Source: an uncultured bacterium (lineage in GTDB: Bacteria; Zhuqueibacterota; QNDG01; DSAB01). Taken from it: 64,000 nucleotides of DNA. Made by a program: the position numbers and the translations under genes. How positions within the stretch are numbered: position 1 is the stretch's first letter; the number at the start of each line of letters is the position of its first letter. Location of the stretch: NCBI GenBank assembly GCA_964617625.1, contig CAZTZL010000007.1, forward strand, positions 1,278 through 65,277, read 5' to 3'. The notes under the pieces were generated by a model. That model had not been told where the DNA came from and did no database searches. It saw nothing but the letters and a program-made list of their open reading frames with translations. Shown here piece by piece: positions 3,484 through 46,048 of this stretch.

Positions 3484-4362
3484 ATGAAAAAATTGCTATT
3501 CATACTATTGATTTCCAGAAGCTTTTCCGTGAGTCAGGCTCAAAACAACACAGATATCAGTCTGTTTATGAAAGCGGATAGCGCCACTTATTTAAACGAG
3601 GTGAGTTCTAAATCGGGCGACCTGTTTCAAACCGTCGGTCATCATGGTCCTGCTGTCGAAAACGAATGGATGGGGATTCGTATCTATTTCGACAAAAAAG
3701 CAGCCATTGATATCTACTCAAAAACAAAACCGGGCCTCGAGCTCAAACAGGCTCGCTGGTACCCTACCATTGAACAACAAAAAAATGGATGGGGAGCCGA
3801 TTATTACAAAGTAGGCGCAACTGTTGGTTTGGGAGGGGTACGTTTATGGGACGGTAAACAGGTCGTTCCGCTTAATCCAGTGACAAACCGGACCGCCCGG
3901 GTTGTAAAAGAAAAAATCTCATCTTATATGGAAATGCTTTCGGAAGGTGTGCCCTGCAAGGATCGAACAGTGGATATTTTAGTCCGTGTGACGGTTTTTT
4001 CTGGGGTCAGAGAAGCCAAAGTTGAAGCCTTTGCCTTAACTGATTTACCGGTGCAATTTGTTACAGGAATCAACTATCATAAGGGAGAGGAAGTTCAAAA
4101 TTATGATGGATTAATTGCGACATGGGGCATACATCCCGAAGATGTCGCGGCCGAGCCGATTCAATTGGGCGCAGCCATTATCTATCAACCCTCCGATTAT
4201 ATCGATGAACAAGATGACGGAACGCAAATATTGTTAATTTCGAAACCGGGCAAAGAGTTAACCACCTGGATTTCTTCTGCCAATGAAAAAGAAGCAGAAT
4301 TGAATACAATGGAAAAATTTCTTCATTCCCTAAACATTGAAAAGTATGCAAAGAAAAATTGA
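3484..4362 (+). CDS. DUF4861-family secreted protein
   Basis: Signal peptide; GPAVENEW.G.R.YFD...IDIYSK and DYYKVG..VGLGG motifs; AAGGAGA RBS before ATG 3484. Confidence 0.7.
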   Translation: MKKLLFILLISRSFSVSQAQNNTDISLFMKADSATYLNEVSSKSGDLFQTVGHHGPAVENEWMGIRIYFDKKAAIDIYSKTKPGLELKQARWYPTIEQQKNGWGADYYKVGATVGLGGVRLWDGKQVVPLNPVTNRTARVVKEKISSYMEMLSEGVPCKDRTVDILVRVTVFSGVREAKVEAFALTDLPVQFVTGINYHKGEEVQNYDGLIATWGIHPEDVAAEPIQLGAAIIYQPSDYIDEQDDGTQILLISKPGKELTTWISSANEKEAELNTMEKFLHSLNIEKYAKKN

Positions 4363-9341: not shown

Positions 9342-10493
9342 ATGAAACGTTCACAAAACAATTTCATTTTATGGTCTATGGTTCTGATGGTTTGTTTACT
9401 GTTTATTCAATGTCAAAATAAGGAGATGTCCGGTATGAAAATTGAGAAGAAAGATTTTGGGAAGACTAAAGACGGTGTTTCTGCCGATTTGTATTCGTTG
9501 ACCAATGCAAATGGGATGGAAGTCGATATCACAAATTATGGCGGTATCATCACATCCATCATCGTTCCTGACAAGGATGGCAATATGGGTGATGTCGCGC
9601 TGGGATTCGACAATCTTGATGATTATATGAAAAAGAGTCCCTACTTCGGCTGTATTGTCGGCCGGTACGGCAACCGGATTGCAAAAGGAAAATTTACGCT
9701 CAATGGTAAAACATATACACTTGCTGTTAATGACGGCCCCAATCATCTTCATGGCGGTATTGTCGGCTTTGACAAGGTCATCTGGGATGCCAAGGAAGTC
9801 CGCGGTGGGGATTATGTCGGTTTGAAACTTTCCTATCTCAGCAAGGACGGGGAAGAGGGTTATCCTGGAAATTTATCAGTCACAGTCACCTATCTGTTGA
9901 CCAATGACAATGAAATTAAAATCCAATATGAAGCCACCACCGATCAGCCTACTGTTTGCAACCTGACCAACCACACCTACTTTAACCTTGCCGATGGAGG
10001 CGCTTCTTCGATACTTGACCACGAGCTTATGATCGATGCGGATTCCATTACAGCAATCGATGAAACATCCATTCCCACTCAATTAATGCCAGTGGCAGGC
10101 ACGCCTTTCGATTTCAGGAAACCCAAAAAGATCGGTTTGGATATTAATAACGATGATCCACAAATAAAGAACGGTCAGGGATATGACCATAATTTCGTTC
10201 TCAATGGTAAATCGGGTACGCTTCGCCTTGCGGCCAGAGCTGTCGATCCTTCCACAGGACGCGTTCTCGAGGTCCTGACAGAAGAGCCCGGCATTCAGCT
10301 TTATACGGGTAATTTTCTGGATGGATCAATCACAGGAAAAGAGGGAAAAGTATATAAGTACAGAAACGGATTTTGTCTGGAAACACAGCACTATCCGGAT
10401 TCTCCAAATCAGCCGGACTTTCCGTCTACTGTGCTGAATCCGGGCGAGAAATATCAAACCACAACTATTTATAAATTTTCAGTAGAAAAATAA
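9342..10493 (+). CDS. galM: Aldose 1-epimerase (mutarotase), lipoprotein-type signal
   Basis: GRYGNRIA.G.F, NHLHGG, NLTNHTYFNL, GYDHNF, FCLETQHYPDSPN; LLFIQC lipobox-like. Confidence 0.93.
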   Translation: MKRSQNNFILWSMVLMVCLLFIQCQNKEMSGMKIEKKDFGKTKDGVSADLYSLTNANGMEVDITNYGGIITSIIVPDKDGNMGDVALGFDNLDDYMKKSPYFGCIVGRYGNRIAKGKFTLNGKTYTLAVNDGPNHLHGGIVGFDKVIWDAKEVRGGDYVGLKLSYLSKDGEEGYPGNLSVTVTYLLTNDNEIKIQYEATTDQPTVCNLTNHTYFNLADGGASSILDHELMIDADSITAIDETSIPTQLMPVAGTPFDFRKPKKIGLDINNDDPQIKNGQGYDHNFVLNGKSGTLRLAARAVDPSTGRVLEVLTEEPGIQLYTGNFLDGSITGKEGKVYKYRNGFCLETQHYPDSPNQPDFPSTVLNPGEKYQTTTIYKFSVEK

Positions 10494-38299: not shown

Positions 38300-38521
38300 A
38301 TGAATTTATCCGATGAGAATGCCGGTGTCGGTTCCTCGAAGATTTCATTCTGCGATTTTCACTGCCCCCACGCTTCATTCCCAAAGGACGGCGATATAGA
38401 TGGATCGAAAAGCTGCCGCACATTTGCCGCTGTCTGGTGCGAACAGCTTCAGGAGTATGTCACGAAAAATGCCCCCTGCCCGGTGAAATTCGGAAAGCGC
38501 CGTCCAAAAGCGAATTGGTAG
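38300..38521 (+). CDS. Small Cys-rich hypothetical protein
   Basis: 73 aa with FCDFHCPH, SCRTF, WC and PC; follows yyaL in the same orientation. Confidence 0.5.
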   Translation: MNLSDENAGVGSSKISFCDFHCPHASFPKDGDIDGSKSCRTFAAVWCEQLQEYVTKNAPCPVKFGKRRPKANW

Positions 38522-38534
38522 GATTTACTTGGTT

Positions 38535-38660
38535 TTATAACGGTTATACTAACCGGATTAAAACATGGAAAGTCTCTCCCGAAGTAAGCGATTCCAGCAA
38601 CCTCTCAAATCCCAAAAGAAGTCGCTGTTTTAATTCCGCGTTCAGCATTTTGTTATGTGC
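38535..38660 (-). mobile_element. Integron attC recombination site
   Basis: Minus strand GCACATAAC-AAAAT-GCTGAAC-GCGGAATTAAAACA...TGTTTTAATCCG-GTTTAGT-ATAACC-GTTATAA: R''/5 bp/L''...L'/6 bp/R' geometry, with two unpaired bases on the R'' arm. Confidence 0.7.
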
Positions 38661-38686
38661 AGATTTTATTTTTGGCCTTTATTTAG

Positions 38687-39316
38687 TTACTTTTTATTCC
38701 ATTGAATTATTATTTCAGCAACAAACAAAGGGATGATCAATGTTACATACATAATTGTAGGTGCAATCTGGGGGTAGTTTCCTAATTTTGCCATAACGGG
38801 TAAAAAGACAATCCACCGGAATAATAAAAAAACAAGGGTTACCAAATAGCTTCTGATCATCCATTCTTTTTGCTGTTGAGTCCTTTTTTTCAGGATAGCC
38901 CTGTAGGCCATAAGTGCTGTTGCCAACCATACAAATGCAAGAACCTGTGAACTTAGTGCCCAGGTCCAATGTATTATTATCCCCATGTTCCATGCTAAAT
39001 ACATAGAACATACAGACGAAATTACAATTCCAGCCAGGTATAATTGTTCAATCCATTTATAGAGACCTGTAAATTTAGCCCTGAATATTGTTACGAATTG
39101 GAATGGGCCTAATATAAGCGCTAATATTCCACCTGAAATGTGCCCGATCAGCCACCATTTTACGCCAACGTACCTGCCAAAAGTTTCGTCCTTAAAACTA
39201 AAATAATGTAGCTTCCCAATCACAAATTTTAATGAAATTAGAAGTAGCATCAATAATATAACTAACCACACAATGGTTTTTAAATTTTGCTGTTTTGAAG
39301 AAATGGTTGTTTTCAT
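38687..39316 (-). CDS. DUF2306-family membrane protein (cassette gene)
   Basis: HISGG..ALILGPFQF, KEWMIRSY; several TM segments; bounded by a core site and attC. Confidence 0.8.
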   Translation of the reverse strand: MKTTISSKQQNLKTIVWLVILLMLLLISLKFVIGKLHYFSFKDETFGRYVGVKWWLIGHISGGILALILGPFQFVTIFRAKFTGLYKWIEQLYLAGIVISSVCSMYLAWNMGIIIHWTWALSSQVLAFVWLATALMAYRAILKKRTQQQKEWMIRSYLVTLVFLLFRWIVFLPVMAKLGNYPQIAPTIMYVTLIIPLFVAEIIIQWNKK

Positions 39317-39433
39317 CGTTCTATATTATAGTTGAGGTTTTCACTAAAATATATTTGCACATAAAGTCGGTTTAACAGGCGCCGAGCAAACGCAAACTTA
39401 AATCAAAGAAGATATTCAATATAATTTTATTTG

Positions 39434-39544
39434 CTATAAATCATGATGCGTGTAGGCGTCCTTGTTGAAATCCGTAGTATGAGAAAGAAGGAAACCCATC
39501 AGTGCAACAGTCAGAACGTTGATCCGTTTCCATTTTGTTGTCAT
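39434..39544 (-). CDS. 36-aa small ORF or truncated secreted protein
   Basis: AGGAGGA RBS; MTTKWKRINVLTVALMGFLLSHTTDFNKDAYTHHDL*. Confidence 0.35.
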   Translation of the reverse strand: MTTKWKRINVLTVALMGFLLSHTTDFNKDAYTHHDL

Positions 39545-39652
39545 AATAAATTCCTCCTGAGTTTAAAATGGTTTTTGTTTCAATAATTTTGGAGGCGTAA
39601 ATCCCTCTATTTTTACGTTCAGGGAAGCAGTCCCTGAGATCAAACATGACTA

Positions 39653-39985
39653 TTATTTTCTCGAATAGCGGTTCGGCTCATTGAAAAAAGTAATGTCAGC
39701 GTACCCAGCATGGATTTTTGCCGAATGCGGAATGCCTTCCGGAATATAATAACGACTGCCTTTCGTATACACATTCATTTTACCATCTACCGTTAATTCA
39801 ATTTCACCCTCCAAAACGATTCCCCATTGCGCATCGTGAGAATGTTCTGTTACATCTACAGTCTTTTCGAATTCCATAAAGATAATTTGATGGGAATCGG
39901 ACTGAGAAAGATAGGCTTTCACTCCATCTATCGGTATATCCGCTTCAGGAAGATTCCTGATTGGTTTTGGAAAGATTTCTGACAT
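39653..39985 (-). CDS. Cupin-domain protein
   Basis: EHSH..QWGIVLEG and IPEGIPHSA cupin motifs; start ATG 39985. Confidence 0.85.
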   Translation of the reverse strand: MSEIFPKPIRNLPEADIPIDGVKAYLSQSDSHQIIFMEFEKTVDVTEHSHDAQWGIVLEGEIELTVDGKMNVYTKGSRYYIPEGIPHSAKIHAGYADITFFNEPNRYSRK

Positions 39986-40143
39986 ATTTTCCCTCTCACT
40001 TATTTGGAACAAGCATCATTGTTTGCGGTTGCCATACGTTTGCCGTAATCCGATCGATTGCGGGATCCACTTTTTATCAGGTCATTGTTTGACTCGTGTA
40101 CCATTTATTCTGTATAATTATCTTTCGATCTCCCATGTATACC

Positions 40144-41493
40144 CTATAGATGTCCAACCGGCTGCACTTCTACAAAAGCCTGGCCCGTGACTGATATGCC
40201 CCCCAGTGTTCCCTCAACTGTCCCAAGGCCTTCGTATTTAATCGTGCTTGTTGTGTCAATCACAATCTCCTGGTTTTCTTGTATCATTTTGATGGTAAGG
40301 TCTACCGGCCAGGTCTCTGATTGTAACCGGATGTGGTGCTGCATGAAGTACTGTTGACCGGTGGCCGGGCTTGTCCATATTGTCCCGGGTACCGTTTCAA
40401 TCTCGATTTCATCTATTGCCCATGAATGTACGGCCTTACGTGCGGAGTTGAGTGTCCGTTCACTGTCGTTACGGAAGAGTGTTGCAACCGGGAGGGAACC
40501 AGTCTCGCTTTTAACCTGCAGGACCATAATCGCGGCGTTTTCTTCCGGAAGTTGTATCGCGAAAAAGTCCCAGGACGCGTTGCTAAAAACTTCGCTCGCC
40601 TTTTGATCGTAGGTTTGAACGACGTAATCCATCCACATCGTTCCGTTTGTGCCGCTGCTCAGCAAAACGCTGTCGCGCATAACAGAGAACTGCTCGACGT
40701 CCATCAATGGCAGCGAATAATAGTAAGATCCCTGACAGGACATCGGATCACTGGTGGCATCAAGATAGGCGGGAACCGAGTGGACAGACGATATCATAAT
40801 CTGCTCCCTCTGAGTATCAGTTAAATACTGCGGGAAGAACGATGATGTCCCGTATCCTTGATTGACCACTCCGAACCGGTCGCAAAGCTGTACTTCCACC
40901 TGGAGCCTGACATTTTGTAAGTTGGGAATATCGGCGCTGAGCCGGTAGACGGCATCCGCTGCTCCCATGGTTCCGGAGACGAGTCCCAATGTTATGAGCG
41001 GTCCCGCTTGCAGAGGCGAGTTCAATTCCACGCTCCATGGATCGGGTGTCACGACCATGAGCGGGTCCGCGGCCAGCGTCAAGAAACCTCTGAATATGTA
41101 GGCGCCAAGGGAAGCGCTGTTGAAGCCGACGATGGCCGGAACAATCGGCGCCCGGAACCCGTTATTCGACATCTCGATACGCTGAACAGCGATAAAAAAT
41201 ACACCGATGTCTTCCGGCGCTGCATCATCCACCAGGCTCCCGAAGAAAAACCAGCCGTCGAGGTCGTACTCGAAGTGCTCGGTCGCGAGGAATTCGGCAA
41301 GCTGCTGTGCGCTCTGTGTTTGCGGCAAGTCATGGTCTTGTGTGAAGAACGGGCATCCTGCAGTGGGACCGGGTTGAACGTGTTTATCAGTCAAGATTTC
41401 TTTGATCTTGTTACAACCACTGCCCCAGTAGAGAATGGAAAAAAAGGCTGCTGTACCAACGATTGTAAAAATCATTTTTATTTTTCTGTTCAT
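40144..41493 (-). CDS. AttH/CrtC (lipocalin-like, hydroxyneurosporene synthase family) lipoprotein
   Basis: DGWFFFGSL, YYYSLP, GTMWMD, WDFFAIQL, YEG...VEG..GG..V.G.AFVE; WGSGC lipobox. Confidence 0.62.
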   Translation of the reverse strand: MNRKIKMIFTIVGTAAFFSILYWGSGCNKIKEILTDKHVQPGPTAGCPFFTQDHDLPQTQSAQQLAEFLATEHFEYDLDGWFFFGSLVDDAAPEDIGVFFIAVQRIEMSNNGFRAPIVPAIVGFNSASLGAYIFRGFLTLAADPLMVVTPDPWSVELNSPLQAGPLITLGLVSGTMGAADAVYRLSADIPNLQNVRLQVEVQLCDRFGVVNQGYGTSSFFPQYLTDTQREQIMISSVHSVPAYLDATSDPMSCQGSYYYSLPLMDVEQFSVMRDSVLLSSGTNGTMWMDYVVQTYDQKASEVFSNASWDFFAIQLPEENAAIMVLQVKSETGSLPVATLFRNDSERTLNSARKAVHSWAIDEIEIETVPGTIWTSPATGQQYFMQHHIRLQSETWPVDLTIKMIQENQEIVIDTTSTIKYEGLGTVEGTLGGISVTGQAFVEVQPVGHL

Positions 41494-41613
41494 TAGCATT
41501 ATCTCCATTCTTGAATATTTCCAACGATTTATTTCATCTGGCTCTTAAAGCAAAATGGCCAGAAATTCTCGCTAGATTGTCCCGGGATTTGAAACGGAAT
41601 TTAAACAATGATT

Positions 41614-42594
41614 CTATTTTGTAAGTATCATCTTCCCTTGCTGAATCAGATGATCAGCCTGGAGTTGGTAAATATAGACTCCCGATGATGCCTCAAGTCT
41701 TCTTTCATCTCTTCCGTCCCAAACGACAGTGTGATTGCCTGCGTAAGTGAACATCCCGTTTGCAAGGACGCGCAGCGTGCGTCCCTGTATGTCCAGTATC
41801 TGGAGAGTCACTACTGCGTCGTTCAGGAGAGAATAAGAAATGCTTGTGGATGCATTAAAGGGATTGGGAAAGTTCTGACAGAGTGTGAAACCGCTTGCGC
41901 AAGAACGGGCTGAATTTTCCTTCACACCGGTTGCCGGATAGACCCATGCCAGCGCATTTTCCATTAACTTTTTGCCGTTCACATCATCGCCGCTCCAGTA
42001 ACCGTAGTACCAAGCCTGTAAATCATTGATGTAGACCACACGCCCTGATCCGTACGAGTAGGTTGCTGCGAATACGACCTGGTCGTTCCAAACAATAACG
42101 ACGTGAGCATCGGTTTTCATGACAGAATTTGTTGAGTATCCATCAAAGCTGCACGTTTCCGAAAGACCAGCGCATAGATCGTGACCAGGGTCCACAATCG
42201 TGACACCTGTTCGTTTATCCCATCCGGAACAATTTGAGACAGGATTCGAATTGGCTGTATTGTCAAAAGAACCGGATTGTACAACCCCTTCAAAAATAAC
42301 AAGACCGCCTCCGGCATTAACGAAATCATCCACCACGGCTTCGGGAATGTCCACATCGTTACCGCCCATGAGAATCAGGATGTCATAACCTTCCACATTG
42401 CCCGGAAAGGTGTTGGATTGGGTAACGGCATATCCGAGAGTTGTGAGATGATCCTGCATTTGATCAAGACTCCACGCGGTTGAAGAAGAACCCCATCCTG
42501 TCATCAGAACATTCTGAGCGCTTGTGTTTTGGGAAAACAGGAAGCCCATCAGCACAATGGTTGTAAAAATGATCCGTTTGTATTTTGTGATCAT
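41614..42594 (-). CDS. Secreted protein with GATase-like domain and FlgD/T9SS-type C-terminal tail
   Basis: Signal peptide; YGSGRVVY; QNFPNPFN.ST.ISYSL...V.L.I.DIQG, WDGRD, SGVYIYQL. Confidence 0.72.
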   Translation of the reverse strand: MITKYKRIIFTTIVLMGFLFSQNTSAQNVLMTGWGSSSTAWSLDQMQDHLTTLGYAVTQSNTFPGNVEGYDILILMGGNDVDIPEAVVDDFVNAGGGLVIFEGVVQSGSFDNTANSNPVSNCSGWDKRTGVTIVDPGHDLCAGLSETCSFDGYSTNSVMKTDAHVVIVWNDQVVFAATYSYGSGRVVYINDLQAWYYGYWSGDDVNGKKLMENALAWVYPATGVKENSARSCASGFTLCQNFPNPFNASTSISYSLLNDAVVTLQILDIQGRTLRVLANGMFTYAGNHTVVWDGRDERRLEASSGVYIYQLQADHLIQQGKMILTK

Positions 42595-42743
42595 AATGAA
42601 CCCCCATAGTTAAGTGATGAATGGTCTATTTACTGTTAGCAAAGGCGTGCTTCACCTCCGCTCGTTACAGCGTTATGCATTGAAACAATTAGACCTTTTC
42701 CTATTTACATTCATGGGACACAATCCCAAAGTAAAACTGTTTT

Positions 42744-42953
42744 TCACTGTTTTTCTTTTCCGCCAAGCAGACGGGCAGGGAGAAAGAGGAGCGCTTTCAC
42801 CAATGACAACAGGGCTTCCATGACCGCGCCGAAAATACGGAACGGAATCGACAGCAGCCAAAGAATCGGCCAAAAAATCAGCAATAGCAGAGCTAAGGGC
42901 CAGCAAAGCACAAGAAGAATAACCCATAGAAGGAGAATTAATAGAAATTTCAT
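42744..42953 (-). CDS. Small hypothetical membrane protein
   Basis: 69 aa, highly hydrophobic with a W-P pattern; AAAGGA RBS. Confidence 0.6.
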   Translation of the reverse strand: MKFLLILLLWVILLVLCWPLALLLLIFWPILWLLSIPFRIFGAVMEALLSLVKALLFLPARLLGGKEKQ

Positions 42954-42977
42954 TTTGTTTCCTTTTTGTTGGCAATA

Positions 42978-43190
42978 TTATTTGATCATATTAAAATGTC
43001 GCATTGCACTTGCAATTAATGATACTTTATTATTCGGACATGGATGACATCTAGTAGCGGCTGATTTACGATTAGGAGATTTCTTTGGATTAAGCCCGTT
43101 AATTTCTTTGACATGAGCGATCCAGCATGACTTTACTGATATATGGTAATTTTCTTTAATATAATTTTGGATTTGCTTATAAGTAGCCAT
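42978..43190 (-). CDS. Small basic protein resembling the RlmD/RumA C-terminal extension
   Basis: MATYKQIQNYIKENY...SCWIAHVKE..GL...HPCP..K...I..AMRHF.MI; AAGGA RBS. Confidence 0.6.
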   Translation of the reverse strand: MATYKQIQNYIKENYHISVKSCWIAHVKEINGLNPKKSPNRKSAATRCHPCPNNKVSLIASAMRHFNMIK

Positions 43191-43276
43191 ATAATTTGTC
43201 CTTATTTTAGATATCATTTTAGATTATACGGTAGCAGATCAAACTCTGTTATTTTAACTATATAAATTCAGTAATT

Positions 43277-43837
43277 CTATTCTGAAACTGAGAATACAGC
43301 AGCACCCCAGTAATAGCCATCCGCTTCACTTTTTAAAGAAATATATTTTTTTGTCAGTTTTGATTTACTTGATGATGCATATTTTTCAAAACGATTGGAA
43401 ATTGTTTTACGTGTTTTGGCTTCAGAATATACTGCAACAAAACCATCATGAATTGAATTCTCTTTTTTAACCAGTTGTTTTAAGCGCTTTACATCCGCAT
43501 CAATCACGTTATTTATATAGGAAAATTTTTTTACTTCAATCAAATAAAGAGGTTCCTCCTTTTTGTTCCATACAATAATATCCACCCGTCCGGACGCATT
43601 GCTCCTTGGTGGTCGTCCTCTGCAATCTGAGTGAGAAAAATTCAATATATCTCTCACTGTATCTTCTAATGTGACGAATATTTTTTTGTCCCACTTAAAT
43701 AGAGACTGCGCAATTTTGTATTGTATGAATGATTCCGGTGCATAACATATCCAGTATCCATTTGACCATTCCATATATTCTTTTTGAGCATTTTTAGTGC
43801 CTTTAAGAATTGCTTCATATATTTTTTGGTTAGCCAT
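43277..43837 (-). CDS. Hypothetical PD-(D/E)xK nuclease-fold protein
   Basis: PESF, GRVDIIVW, LIEVKK; AGGAGG RBS; AT-rich. Confidence 0.55.
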   Translation of the reverse strand: MANQKIYEAILKGTKNAQKEYMEWSNGYWICYAPESFIQYKIAQSLFKWDKKIFVTLEDTVRDILNFSHSDCRGRPPRSNASGRVDIIVWNKKEEPLYLIEVKKFSYINNVIDADVKRLKQLVKKENSIHDGFVAVYSEAKTRKTISNRFEKYASSSKSKLTKKYISLKSEADGYYWGAAVFSVSE

Positions 43838-43906
43838 GTTGGTTCCTCCTATATATTTTTCCCTGCAGAGGCTCGGCCTCTACGGAACTGGAAGGATCAA
43901 TCTATT

Positions 43907-44134
43907 TCAACTAAAAATAGCTACAGGAACCGGACGTTTTTTTGTTAAATTTGACTTGTGAAGTTTAATTCTCTCTATCTCATGCAGGGTGTCAGCAGTC
44001 AAATAGCTTTCCCCGCAATGAGAGCATATTACTACGGGCACGTTTTCTATAATTAATATATTTTTACCTTTGCCGTAACTTCTTGTTACATGGCGAATGC
44101 GCGCTTCTTCATGTCCACAAATGTCACAGATCAT
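43907..44134 (-). CDS. YgiT-type zinc finger (MqsA-like antitoxin, no HTH)
   Basis: CDICG, IIENVPVVICSHCGESY. Confidence 0.85.
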   Translation of the reverse strand: MICDICGHEEARIRHVTRSYGKGKNILIIENVPVVICSHCGESYLTADTLHEIERIKLHKSNLTKKRPVPVAIFS

Positions 44135-44144
44135 ATTAACACCT

Positions 44145-44426
44145 TTAAATTTTGTATACAGTGATTATTACCATTTTACCAGTTATACTCATTTTAACTA
44201 TTATTCCCATATCAAGACCAGGAATTGATTTGCCGATAATAGTATATTTCCATTCTCCTGTTTTTGTATCCTTTTTTCGACCGATTATTTTACCGTTTAA
44301 AATACATCTTTCAATATCAAATATTGATAAGTCATCATTGTCCATTTCTTCTTCAGCATGTAATGTCATAACAAATTGATTTGTCCGGATTTTTTCACAG
44401 AATAGTTTAAAGATTCGATCAAACAT
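44145..44426 (-). CDS. DUF4258 protein (putative RelE-like toxin)
   Basis: TLHAEEEM..D.L...DI...I..G.II and VIITVY; directly upstream of the YgiT finger. Confidence 0.82.
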   Translation of the reverse strand: MFDRIFKLFCEKIRTNQFVMTLHAEEEMDNDDLSIFDIERCILNGKIIGRKKDTKTGEWKYTIIGKSIPGLDMGIIVKMSITGKMVIITVYKI

Positions 44427-44485
44427 TAATAATCCTTTTTTTGCCTAAGTATAGTACAATAGCATAATGATATTTCTCATTTATT

Positions 44486-46048
44486 TCAGGACTTAAAACG
44501 CTTTGGGTCGATGCCGTAGTTCATAATTTTATATCCGATGATCCGCTCTGTCGAATTCAAAAGTCTCGCGGCTTTGGCCTGGTTGCCTCTGGTCGATTTC
44601 AGTGCGTCCTGAATCAACTCTTTTTCATAAGCGGCCACGGCATCGTCGAGAGAGAGCTGCGTCAAGGTATTGCTGCTTTCGGCGGTCTGCAGTGTCGGCG
44701 GAAGATGATAGCTGTGGATGACATGGTCCTCGCAGATCAAAACGGCCCGCTCGATGCAGTTCTCCAGTTCCCGGACATTTCCCGGCCAGTGATACCGCAT
44801 CAGGGTGTCGATGGCGGGTGTGGAAATGCGTTTCACCGATTTACCGTGCTGTCTTCCGTATTTCAGCATGAAGTGGTCCGCAAGAAGAAGAATGTCTGTT
44901 TTCCGGTCACGAAGAGGGGGGAGGAAGATGGAAAAAACATTCAAACGATAATAAAGGTCTTCGCGGAATGTGCCTTTGCTCATATTTAATTCCAGGTCCG
45001 CATTGGTCGCGGCGATGACCCGTACATCCACACTGATTTTTTCTGTACCGCCAACCCGTTCGAATTGCTGTTCCTGCAATACGCGAAGGAGTTTGACCTG
45101 AGTCAGCGGGCTCAATTCTCCGACTTCATCCAGAAAAATCGTGCCGCCGTCCGCAATTTCGAACCGGCCTTTCTTCTGGCTGACTGCGCCGGTGAATGCG
45201 CCCTTTTCATGTCCGAAAAATTCAGACTCGATTAAATTTTCCGGAATGGCCGCACAGTTTACGGTAATAAACGGTTTTTCGTTTCGGGTTGAATTATAAT
45301 GAATAGCTTCTGCGATCAACTCCTTGCCCGTTCCCGATTCTCCCCGTATCATGACAGTCGTATTGGTACGGGCCACATGGGTTACCTGTTCGTAGACATC
45401 CCGCATCTCGTGGCTGTTTCCGATGATTTTATGAAAGCTGAATTCATCCTGAAGTTTTTGCCGTAACAACACATTTTCATTGATCAATTTTTCTCTCTCG
45501 CCAGTAATGACATGCTCCACACGAATTGGCTGAAGAAGAGCCGAGGCGACAAGAGTCAAAAATTTTAATGTGCTGTCAAAATCCCGCTTCGGGCTGTAAA
45601 CAAGGCTGACAACAAGCACACCGAGAGTTTTATAATCCAGCTTGATTGGAATACCGATAAAACTCTGTTCTTTGTCCAGTTTGGGATCCCAGGAGCTCAT
45701 CCGGTTTAAAAATAACGGTTCTTTGCTGACCTGGGGGACGATGATCGGTTTCCCTGTCTCTGCAATACGGCCTGTCAATCCTTCCCCGAATTTGTATTCC
45801 GTTTTTGCTACATCGACTCGGTATCCGATCGATGCGGCCATGCTGAGAGATTTGCCATCCTCATTGGTAAGGAGAACGGCGCCGGATTGAATATTGTATT
45901 CATTTTGAAGAATTTGAAGCGTTGCCCGGAGTGAATCACGAAGAACGAGATTACGGCTGACAGCCTGATTGATTTCAATCAGAATGGAGAGATTTTTCAT
46001 GGTTTTATCCGGGGACACTTTTACTGATTTCGAATTTGCATTTTTCAT
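44486..46048 (-). CDS. NifA-like sigma54 enhancer-binding protein (GAF-AAA+-HTH)
   Basis: GAF (GEGLTGRIA..GKP), GESGTGKEL, GAFTGA, FLDE, REDLYYRLNV, WPGNVRELEN, GNQAKAARLL. Confidence 0.93.
   Translation of the reverse strand: MKNANSKSVKVSPDKTMKNLSILIEINQAVSRNLVLRDSLRATLQILQNEYNIQSGAVLLTNEDGKSLSMAASIGYRVDVAKTEYKFGEGLTGRIAETGKPIIVPQVSKEPLFLNRMSSWDPKLDKEQSFIGIPIKLDYKTLGVLVVSLVYSPKRDFDSTLKFLTLVASALLQPIRVEHVITGEREKLINENVLLRQKLQDEFSFHKIIGNSHEMRDVYEQVTHVARTNTTVMIRGESGTGKELIAEAIHYNSTRNEKPFITVNCAAIPENLIESEFFGHEKGAFTGAVSQKKGRFEIADGGTIFLDEVGELSPLTQVKLLRVLQEQQFERVGGTEKISVDVRVIAATNADLELNMSKGTFREDLYYRLNVFSIFLPPLRDRKTDILLLADHFMLKYGRQHGKSVKRISTPAIDTLMRYHWPGNVRELENCIERAVLICEDHVIHSYHLPPTLQTAESSNTLTQLSLDDAVAAYEKELIQDALKSTRGNQAKAARLLNSTERIIGYKIMNYGIDPKRFKS

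Follow-up and report, generated by a model that had tools for sequence, protein, structure and literature searches.

Positions 38541-39364 of the window, that is, of the whole 64-kb stretch of DNA that was analysed, very probably carry a single DUF2306 integron cassette with its own attC, isolated and placed by an integrase at a secondary site (a SALIN). Placement at a secondary genomic site by an integron integrase is the most likely origin of this arrangement. SALINs are a known kind of element, with thousands catalogued and a formation route described, and no new type of system is presented here. The same cassette is found both in shuffling arrays and, with its gene part 99.7% identical, fixed beside a conserved chromosomal gene. 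Integron cassettes thus circulate in an uncultured FCB-type lineage (Calditrichota/KSB1-like and T9SS-bearing), and the fixed copy would illustrate, in nature, the spread of cassettes by integrase along the 'attC x genome' route that was demonstrated in E. coli. The first-pass annotation had already proposed an integron-type cassette from the letters of the window; this interpretation is now supported by array contigs carrying the same unit, by a match to an attC covariance model and by the lack of an integrase in the window.

The cassette and its copies in array contigs

The cassette is complete, lies on the minus strand (38541..39364) and spans 824 bp from TTATGTGC to AACCG. Its 5' end, TTATGTGC (39357..39364, read on the minus strand as 39364-39357), begins with TT and would be the half of the core site that remains after a G|TT crossover. 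It is the exact complement of R'' (GCACATAAC, 38660-38652), a relationship proposed at first pass that held in both its coordinates and its letters. The single gene of the cassette (38687..39316, minus strand) was previously annotated as DUF2306, which Pfam confirms (PF10067, E 9e-20), and encodes a predicted membrane protein of 209 aa. GC content is 0.32-0.39 over the cassette versus 0.42-0.50 in its flanks. Expression of the gene would depend on read-through from upstream on the same strand or on a promoter within the 48-nt leader. No match to the cassette was found in plasmid and phage collections. The protein has 112 homologues, mostly of Bacteroidota type; those at 74-78% identity are chromosomal genes of the usual kind, in which 10-12 nt separate the stop from the next gene, and neither an attC nor a hairpin lies behind them.

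Through P0197, a further member of the 90% cluster, we reached ten short metagenome contigs (L211-L220; 1.2-3.9 kb, from at least ten samples) that carry the same cassette together with neighbouring attCs. The samples include JGI 3300057053, 3300057010, 3300057011 and 3300056885 and ENA ERZ23486242, ERZ23486255, ERZ27283517 and ERZ27284372. In comparison with the window, their gene part is identical at 712 of 714 positions and the remainder of the attC at 98 of 110, and the 60 nt on each side of the cassette are about 30% identical, which is the random level. The homology breaks exactly at G|TTATGTGC and at AACCG|TT, and it starts at TTATGTGC in every other context of the cassette; positions 39364 and 38541, the limits first proposed for an 824-bp cassette, are exactly where homology to the ten contigs starts and stops. 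Beyond AACCG|TT the sequence continues with TTAGGTTAAT in L211 and L219, TTGGGCACTC in L214, L217 and L220, TTATATGC in L218 and TTATAAAACC in the window. The cassette has four upstream and four downstream contexts, which occur in several combinations, and one shared upstream neighbour is nonetheless followed, after the cassette, by three different downstream sequences. As judged from sequence, this pattern is that of cassette shuffling, and the comparison is the decisive sequence evidence for the 824-bp unit. Gene and attC travel together with G|TT breaks in the ten contigs; the exceptions are two further contigs, L015 and L023, which are discussed below.

The upstream neighbours in the arrays end in canonical attCs, with R'' GCTAAC, a 5-nt spacer, a 7-nt L'' against a 6-nt L' and a spacer of 5-7 nt, followed by G|TTATGTGC. 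All five neighbouring attCs share the 5-nt spacer, the 7- versus 6-nt L boxes and a conserved bulged A; array attCs are 105-135 bp long, and some resemble one another (L211_up and L212_up; L214_up and the DUF2306 attC). Each array cassette has one short promoter-proximal ORF, all in a single orientation and with G|TT boundaries. The array of L211 (1-3868) comprises at least three attC-bounded units and encodes, in order, a protein with a T9SS sorting domain, the DUF2306 cassette, a BNR/sortilin-like protein and a metallo-beta-lactamase-fold protein; an attC lies behind the metallo-beta-lactamase-fold gene (3673-3808), and no clear attC was seen behind the BNR/sortilin-like gene. Judging by the T9SS sorting domain encoded on a neighbouring cassette, the arrays may belong to the FCB group. 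No integrase or attI was seen on these contigs of 1.2-3.9 kb.

Architecture and folding of the attC site

The attC (38535..38660, minus strand) is 126 bp long. It consists of R'' (GCACATAAC, or (GC)ACATAAC, 38660-38652), the 5-nt spacer AAAAT (38651-38647), the 7-nt L'' GCTGAAC (38646-38640), an imperfect stem and loop, the 6-nt L' GTTAGT (38553-38548), the 6-nt spacer ATAACC (38547-38542) and R' G|TTATAA (38541-38535, with the G at 38541). The length, the 5- and 6-nt spacers and G|TTATAA at 38541 had all been described at first pass and were verified on the sequence. The stem is long and imperfect (CGGAATTAAAACA / TGTTTTAATCCG), and the bottom strand, predicted to be the recombinogenic one, is the plus strand of the window. 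R' reads G|TTATAA in the chromosome and G|TTATGTGC in the circular form, which gives 9-10 bp of perfect R''/R' pairing between complementary cores; ACATAAC / GTTATGT departs from the RYYYAAC / GTTRRRY consensus at one position, with A for Y. The L box has one extra, extrahelical base on the '' arm, which also bears two more bulges, and the unequal spacers leave an unpaired central spacer. The bulged L base on the bottom strand is C in the window attC, as against G in attC-aadA7. Compared with the array allele (L' GTTAGC), a C-to-T change in L' creates an A.C mismatch in the bottom-strand L box.

By themselves, these motifs do not exceed chance. Allowing up to one mismatch, GCACATAAC has 10 occurrences in the window, where chance predicts 9.5, and a simple heuristic scanner for R and L boxes returned about 57 loose matches. 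Folding of the bottom strand had been suggested as a check at first pass, and its outcome depends on the form that is folded. In the chromosomal form, 38530-38670 folds weakly (bottom strand -11.7 kcal/mol, z -0.47; top strand z -1.9), a fold that is uninformative because R' in the linear site does not come from the cassette. Once the R' of the cassette is restored to give the circular form, the bottom strand reaches -15.9 kcal/mol (z -2.8, none of 200 shuffles being as good), and its structure comprises an R box of 10 bp, an unpaired spacer, an L box and a stem bulged on one arm; the array allele reaches -22 kcal/mol (z -4.1) in the same form. It is the comparative boundaries, the covariance-model match and the circular-form fold that lift the case above chance.

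Covariance model and covariation

A covariance model, R1, was built from five attC sites of the array contigs, leaving out the DUF2306 attC. In these five sites all 14 proposed pairs are standard (5/5) and covariation is visible. Searched against both strands of the 64-kb window, this custom model recognised a single site, 38537-38655 on the minus strand (34.1 bits, E 8e-5), a match that is only partly independent, because loop sequence peculiar to this family occurs in both the training site L214_up and the DUF2306 attC; without filters, the second-best match was at 9350-9403 (E 1.5). When 11 distinct attCs were aligned to R1, 99.3% of cells were paired and seven of the ten L-box and stem pairs had changed on both sides, figures that lean towards structure because the alignment was fitted to the model. 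The covariation score of this alignment was 0.595, compared with 0.154 in shuffles, none of 500 of which reached it, and sliding the partner columns as a control reduced pairing to 16-40%. Thus the structure is kept by compensatory change while the sequence varies, and AAC and GTT are invariant across the 11 family members. An attC family with at least five members and covariation is hereby defined, which could serve in searches for the cognate integrase and for more cassettes.

Integrase search and class of the element

The statement at first pass that the window holds no integrase agrees with our searches: tblastn with IntI1 as query gave only matches with E above 2 across the 64 kb, and Pfam scans of the 30 larger ORFs found no recombinase among them. 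The latter ORFs were housekeeping genes, including those for Na+-NQR, PdxA, sugar metabolism and PorV. The combination of intI, attI and Pc beside cassettes that makes a complete integron is accordingly absent from the window, which covers 25-38 kb on either side of the cassette, and R1 with filters off detected no second attC in it. A single attC with no integrase nearby is the hallmark of a SALIN. With no IntI-like gene, no second attC and an empty site in a relative (L227, below), the cassette is therefore assigned as isolated.

The chromosomal insertion site

The backbone side of the 3' junction carries the target half-site TTATAAAACCAAGTAAATC (38522..38540, minus-strand reading), within the 20 nt that follow the stop of a Cys-rich gene of 73 aa (38300..38521, plus strand). 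This gene is conserved and belongs to the backbone, not to the cassette. KSB1/Calditrichia-like metagenome bins contain 84 homologues that share 57-78% identity with it, most often right behind a DUF255 thioredoxin-domain gene, and its product matched no Pfam family. The gene is real, because its differences to L016, the nearest relative from a genome-collection scan with the DUF255 neighbour, are mostly synonymous. The best named homologues of PdxA and of the 73-aa protein are labelled 'bacterium', candidate division KSB1 or Calditrichia (52-70% identity), and T9SS components point to an FCB-group host. Our literature search surfaced no paper combining Calditrich* with integrons, which is weak evidence of absence.

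The 73-aa gene adjoins the site in L021, L022 and L227. L227 is a relative with about 77% nucleotide identity to the window. Here the gene is followed by ...TTTTATAAC and then by unrelated sequence, with neither the cassette nor an attC found behind it. Homology between L227 and the window stops at about 38541-38545, and the empty site of L227, in cassette-strand reading, is G|TTATAAAA, a GTT site. Its left neighbour differs from that of the window, and the left-flank similarity is not significant (70 of 2000 shuffles were as good). An empty site was not found in the window's own species, where the cassette is present in 13 of 13 contigs; the exact DUF2306 protein is encoded on six short same-species contigs, all in the same context. 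The window's own samples are JGI 3300031692 and 3300031552 and SRR9700623 and SRR9700626.

At first pass the switch of sequence at G|TT had been taken as the signature of IntI-mediated insertion. This stands at the 3' end, where the G of the cassette is followed by genomic TT (G|TTATAA), and fails at the 5' end, where the window has T|TT: the base 5' of the cassette (39365, minus strand) is T in place of the canonical G, which is present in all attC-context copies. The left junction reflects either a non-consensus target, a mutated base, or left and right flanks that were not originally joined to each other.

A variable stretch beside the site

In L021, a more distant relative, a gene for a sigma-54 activator lies 80 bp behind the 73-aa gene. 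The counterpart of this activator in the window is at 44486-46048, and the approximately 6 kb between (38522-44485) are variable, because they are absent from L021. The stretch looks like a variable hotspot. Besides the cassette it holds a 36-aa ORF, genes for a cupin, a lipocalin-like protein and a T9SS-tail protein, two small ORFs, a gene for a PD-(D/E)XK-like protein and a DUF4258/MqsA-like toxin-antitoxin pair, all on the minus strand. The contig of L016 ends inside the 73-aa gene, and that of L022 ends at it.

Two of these features deserve a brief description. The 36-aa ORF (MTTKWKRINVLTVALMGFLLSHTTDFNKDAYTHHDL, 39434-39544, minus strand) lies between the cupin gene and the cassette and is preceded by a strong AGGAGG ribosome-binding site; gene callers treat it inconsistently, and on some contigs they report a 47-aa ORF on the opposite strand instead. 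In the toxin-antitoxin-like pair (43907-44426, minus strand), a DUF4258 protein (44145-44426, E 1e-11) comes first; the 75-aa zinc-finger protein behind it (43907-44134) has weak matches to MqsA/YokU antitoxins, below the Pfam cut-offs.

Such a setting raises the question of whether a decayed array (a CALIN or degenerate integron) lies here, of which the cassette is all that can still be recognised, the stretch 38522-44485 being made up of former cassettes with eroded attCs. The DUF2306 cassette would then have joined that array, or been left over from it, instead of entering a naive genomic site. We consider this reading improbable. The whole stretch is missing in L021, the contigs of relatives break here, all its genes lie on the strand of the cassette, it has low-GC patches, and it includes a toxin-antitoxin pair (DUF4258 + MqsA-like) of the sort typical of chromosomal arrays; T|TT at the left junction would also be easier to understand as the trace of a degraded upstream attC. 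However, R1 with filters off found no second attC here. Its best other matches were 39356-39435 (12.3 bits, E 2.5), a score that is inflated because R1 learnt the TTATGTGCA flank, and 43267-43376 (E 3.9), and the heuristic scan of the stretch yielded nothing convincing. Moreover, genes of up to 454 aa separated by intergenic gaps of 105-130 nt without R or L boxes are unlike cassettes. Insertion of an isolated cassette at a secondary genomic site is the reading that we retain.

Comparison with known systems

Like other SALINs, the window copy comprises one CDS and one attC with no other attC or intI nearby, it has a 3' junction at which the G of the cassette meets the TT of the genome, and its insertion point is an unstructured intergenic site that reads GTT in a relative. 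It differs from the GWT consensus of IntI1 in the T at the 5' -1 position, and its host belongs to an uncultured FCB-type lineage and is not a RefSeq isolate. In contrast to most SALINs in databases, arrays of the type that could have donated the cassette are visible, in other metagenomes.

The arrays themselves resemble those of sedentary chromosomal integrons, such as that of Vibrio cholerae with its repeats of 120-130 bp. Their attCs are long (105-135 bp) and alike, and their cassettes have one short ORF each, in the same orientation and with G|TT boundaries. They differ in that no integrase or attI was seen on the array contigs, and the R'' of the window cassette (ACATAAC) is unlike that of its array neighbours (GCTAAC).

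CALINs are defined by at least two attCs (2016, PMC4889954). The window copy shares with them an attC-bearing cassette and no integrase in reach, and L211-L220 would score as CALINs or integron fragments. The copy in the window is itself not a CALIN, because only one attC is detectable where at least two within about 4 kb, with no integrase, are called for.

Proposed route of insertion

Integrase-mediated insertion at genomic sites has been shown experimentally, with a GWT consensus for IntI1, and SALINs have been documented (bioRxiv 10.1101/2022.09.11.507474). In the window, an integron integrase would have excised the cassette from an array as a circle. The folded bottom strand of its attC would then have recombined with a double-stranded secondary site of GTT type (attG-like), 20 nt downstream of the 73-aa gene, and replication would have resolved the recombination intermediate. 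The integrase may have acted in trans, from elsewhere in the genome or from a transient donor. The unit, its limits, the architecture of its attC, its occurrence in arrays and the backbone half-site are shown; the direction of cassette transfer and the original target, as well as the in-trans integrase, are inferred.

The window copy is probably immobile now. This is because its 5' neighbour is non-attC DNA with T|TT at the junction, leaving it no partner site, because the C-to-T change in L' gives the A.C mismatch in the bottom-strand L box, and because the cassette is fixed in the sampled population, being present on every same-species contig.

Two contigs with a different breakpoint

Two short contigs, L015 (93% nucleotide identity) and L023 (98%), match the window only over TTATGTGC...GCACATAACA. 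Both switch to unrelated DNA at the identical nucleotide, 2 nt past R'' (GCACATAACAC|), and their continuations (L015:935-964 and L023:810-1022) are only faintly alike. Their 5' junctions, G|TT in L015 and A|TT in L023, both lie beside non-attC DNA. R1 found no attC in the two continuations, Rfam searches of L015, L023 and L212 returned no group II intron and no other family, and nhmmer detected no homology between the downstream flanks of the window and of L023. A search of metagenomes for the 16-mer AAAATCTGCACATAAC gave at least 120 chance matches, with none carrying the cassette among the matches listed; in viral contigs, too, the 16-mer gave chance matches only.

The shared breakpoint may hint at a second mode of cutting and joining of the cassette at the R'' side of the attC, which we regard as unlikely. 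Such joining might be caused by top-strand or R''-side recombination, or by an undescribed element targeting the R''-L'' spacer. If it were real, the T|TT left junction of the window might share this non-standard chemistry and would not be the result of a later point mutation.

The same two contigs bear on the reading of the unit as a non-autonomous transposon-like element (a MITE or mobile insertion cassette) with 19-nt inverted repeats, moved by a transposase or another recombinase, in which the hairpin would be flank or terminator. The gene is indeed surrounded by a 19-nt imperfect inverted repeat that is 79% complementary (I2; TTATGTGCAAAT... / ...ATCTGCACATAA), and the homology in L015 and L023 is limited to the segment from TTATGTGC to GCACATAACA, with unrelated DNA on both sides. 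Nevertheless, we hold this reading to be very improbable. The hairpin travels with the gene in ten contigs, where homology extends to AACCG|TT, so that on the 3' side the unit really ends 110 nt past the inverted repeat, and a target-site duplication was found in none of seven distinct contexts. In a cassette, the complementary R'' and R' would by themselves produce such an inverted repeat, the attCs that bound neighbouring units have R'' sequences different from this one, and the motif is not repeated elsewhere in the window.

An early idea, in which the mobile unit was the gene between the 19-nt inverted repeats as in L015 and L023, was dropped, as the attC co-travels with the gene in L211-L220. 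Xer/dif-like half-sites, pdif modules, MITE/MIC elements, IS200/605-type ends and palindromic junction sites were dropped on the same ground.

That an ordinary chromosomal DUF2306 gene merely lies beside a weak hairpin and a fortuitous 8-nt complement upstream fits the motif counts at their expected level, the many loose scanner matches, the chromosomal-form fold (z -0.47) and the plain chromosomal setting of the homologues at 74-78% identity (next gene 10-12 nt past the stop), but it is scarcely credible given the 99.7%-identical copies in unrelated contexts with boundaries exact to the nucleotide, the R1 match, the covariation and the GC dip over the cassette.

Divergence and insertion within the attC

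The array alleles of the DUF2306 cassette show two further features. Within the one cassette, the gene part differs from that of the window at 2 of 714 positions and the attC remainder (window 38541-38651 versus L211:1392-1501) at 12 of 110, mostly in the central loop. This is an approximately 40-fold gap in divergence, which purifying selection alone cannot explain.

In addition, an IS110-family element lies inside the DUF2306 attC at L212:1661-3471, and likewise in L213, L215 and L216. It encodes a 443-aa transposase (PF01548 + PF02371) and is placed exactly between AACC and G|TT; past the element, the L212 contig continues with GTTAT and stops there. The IS1111-attC group of the IS110 family reportedly targets attC sites. 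The element within the cassette's attC in these four contigs looks like an attC-targeting insertion sequence of the IS1111-attC type, a likeness that concerns the array copies and not the window, and in which membership of the subgroup is putative.
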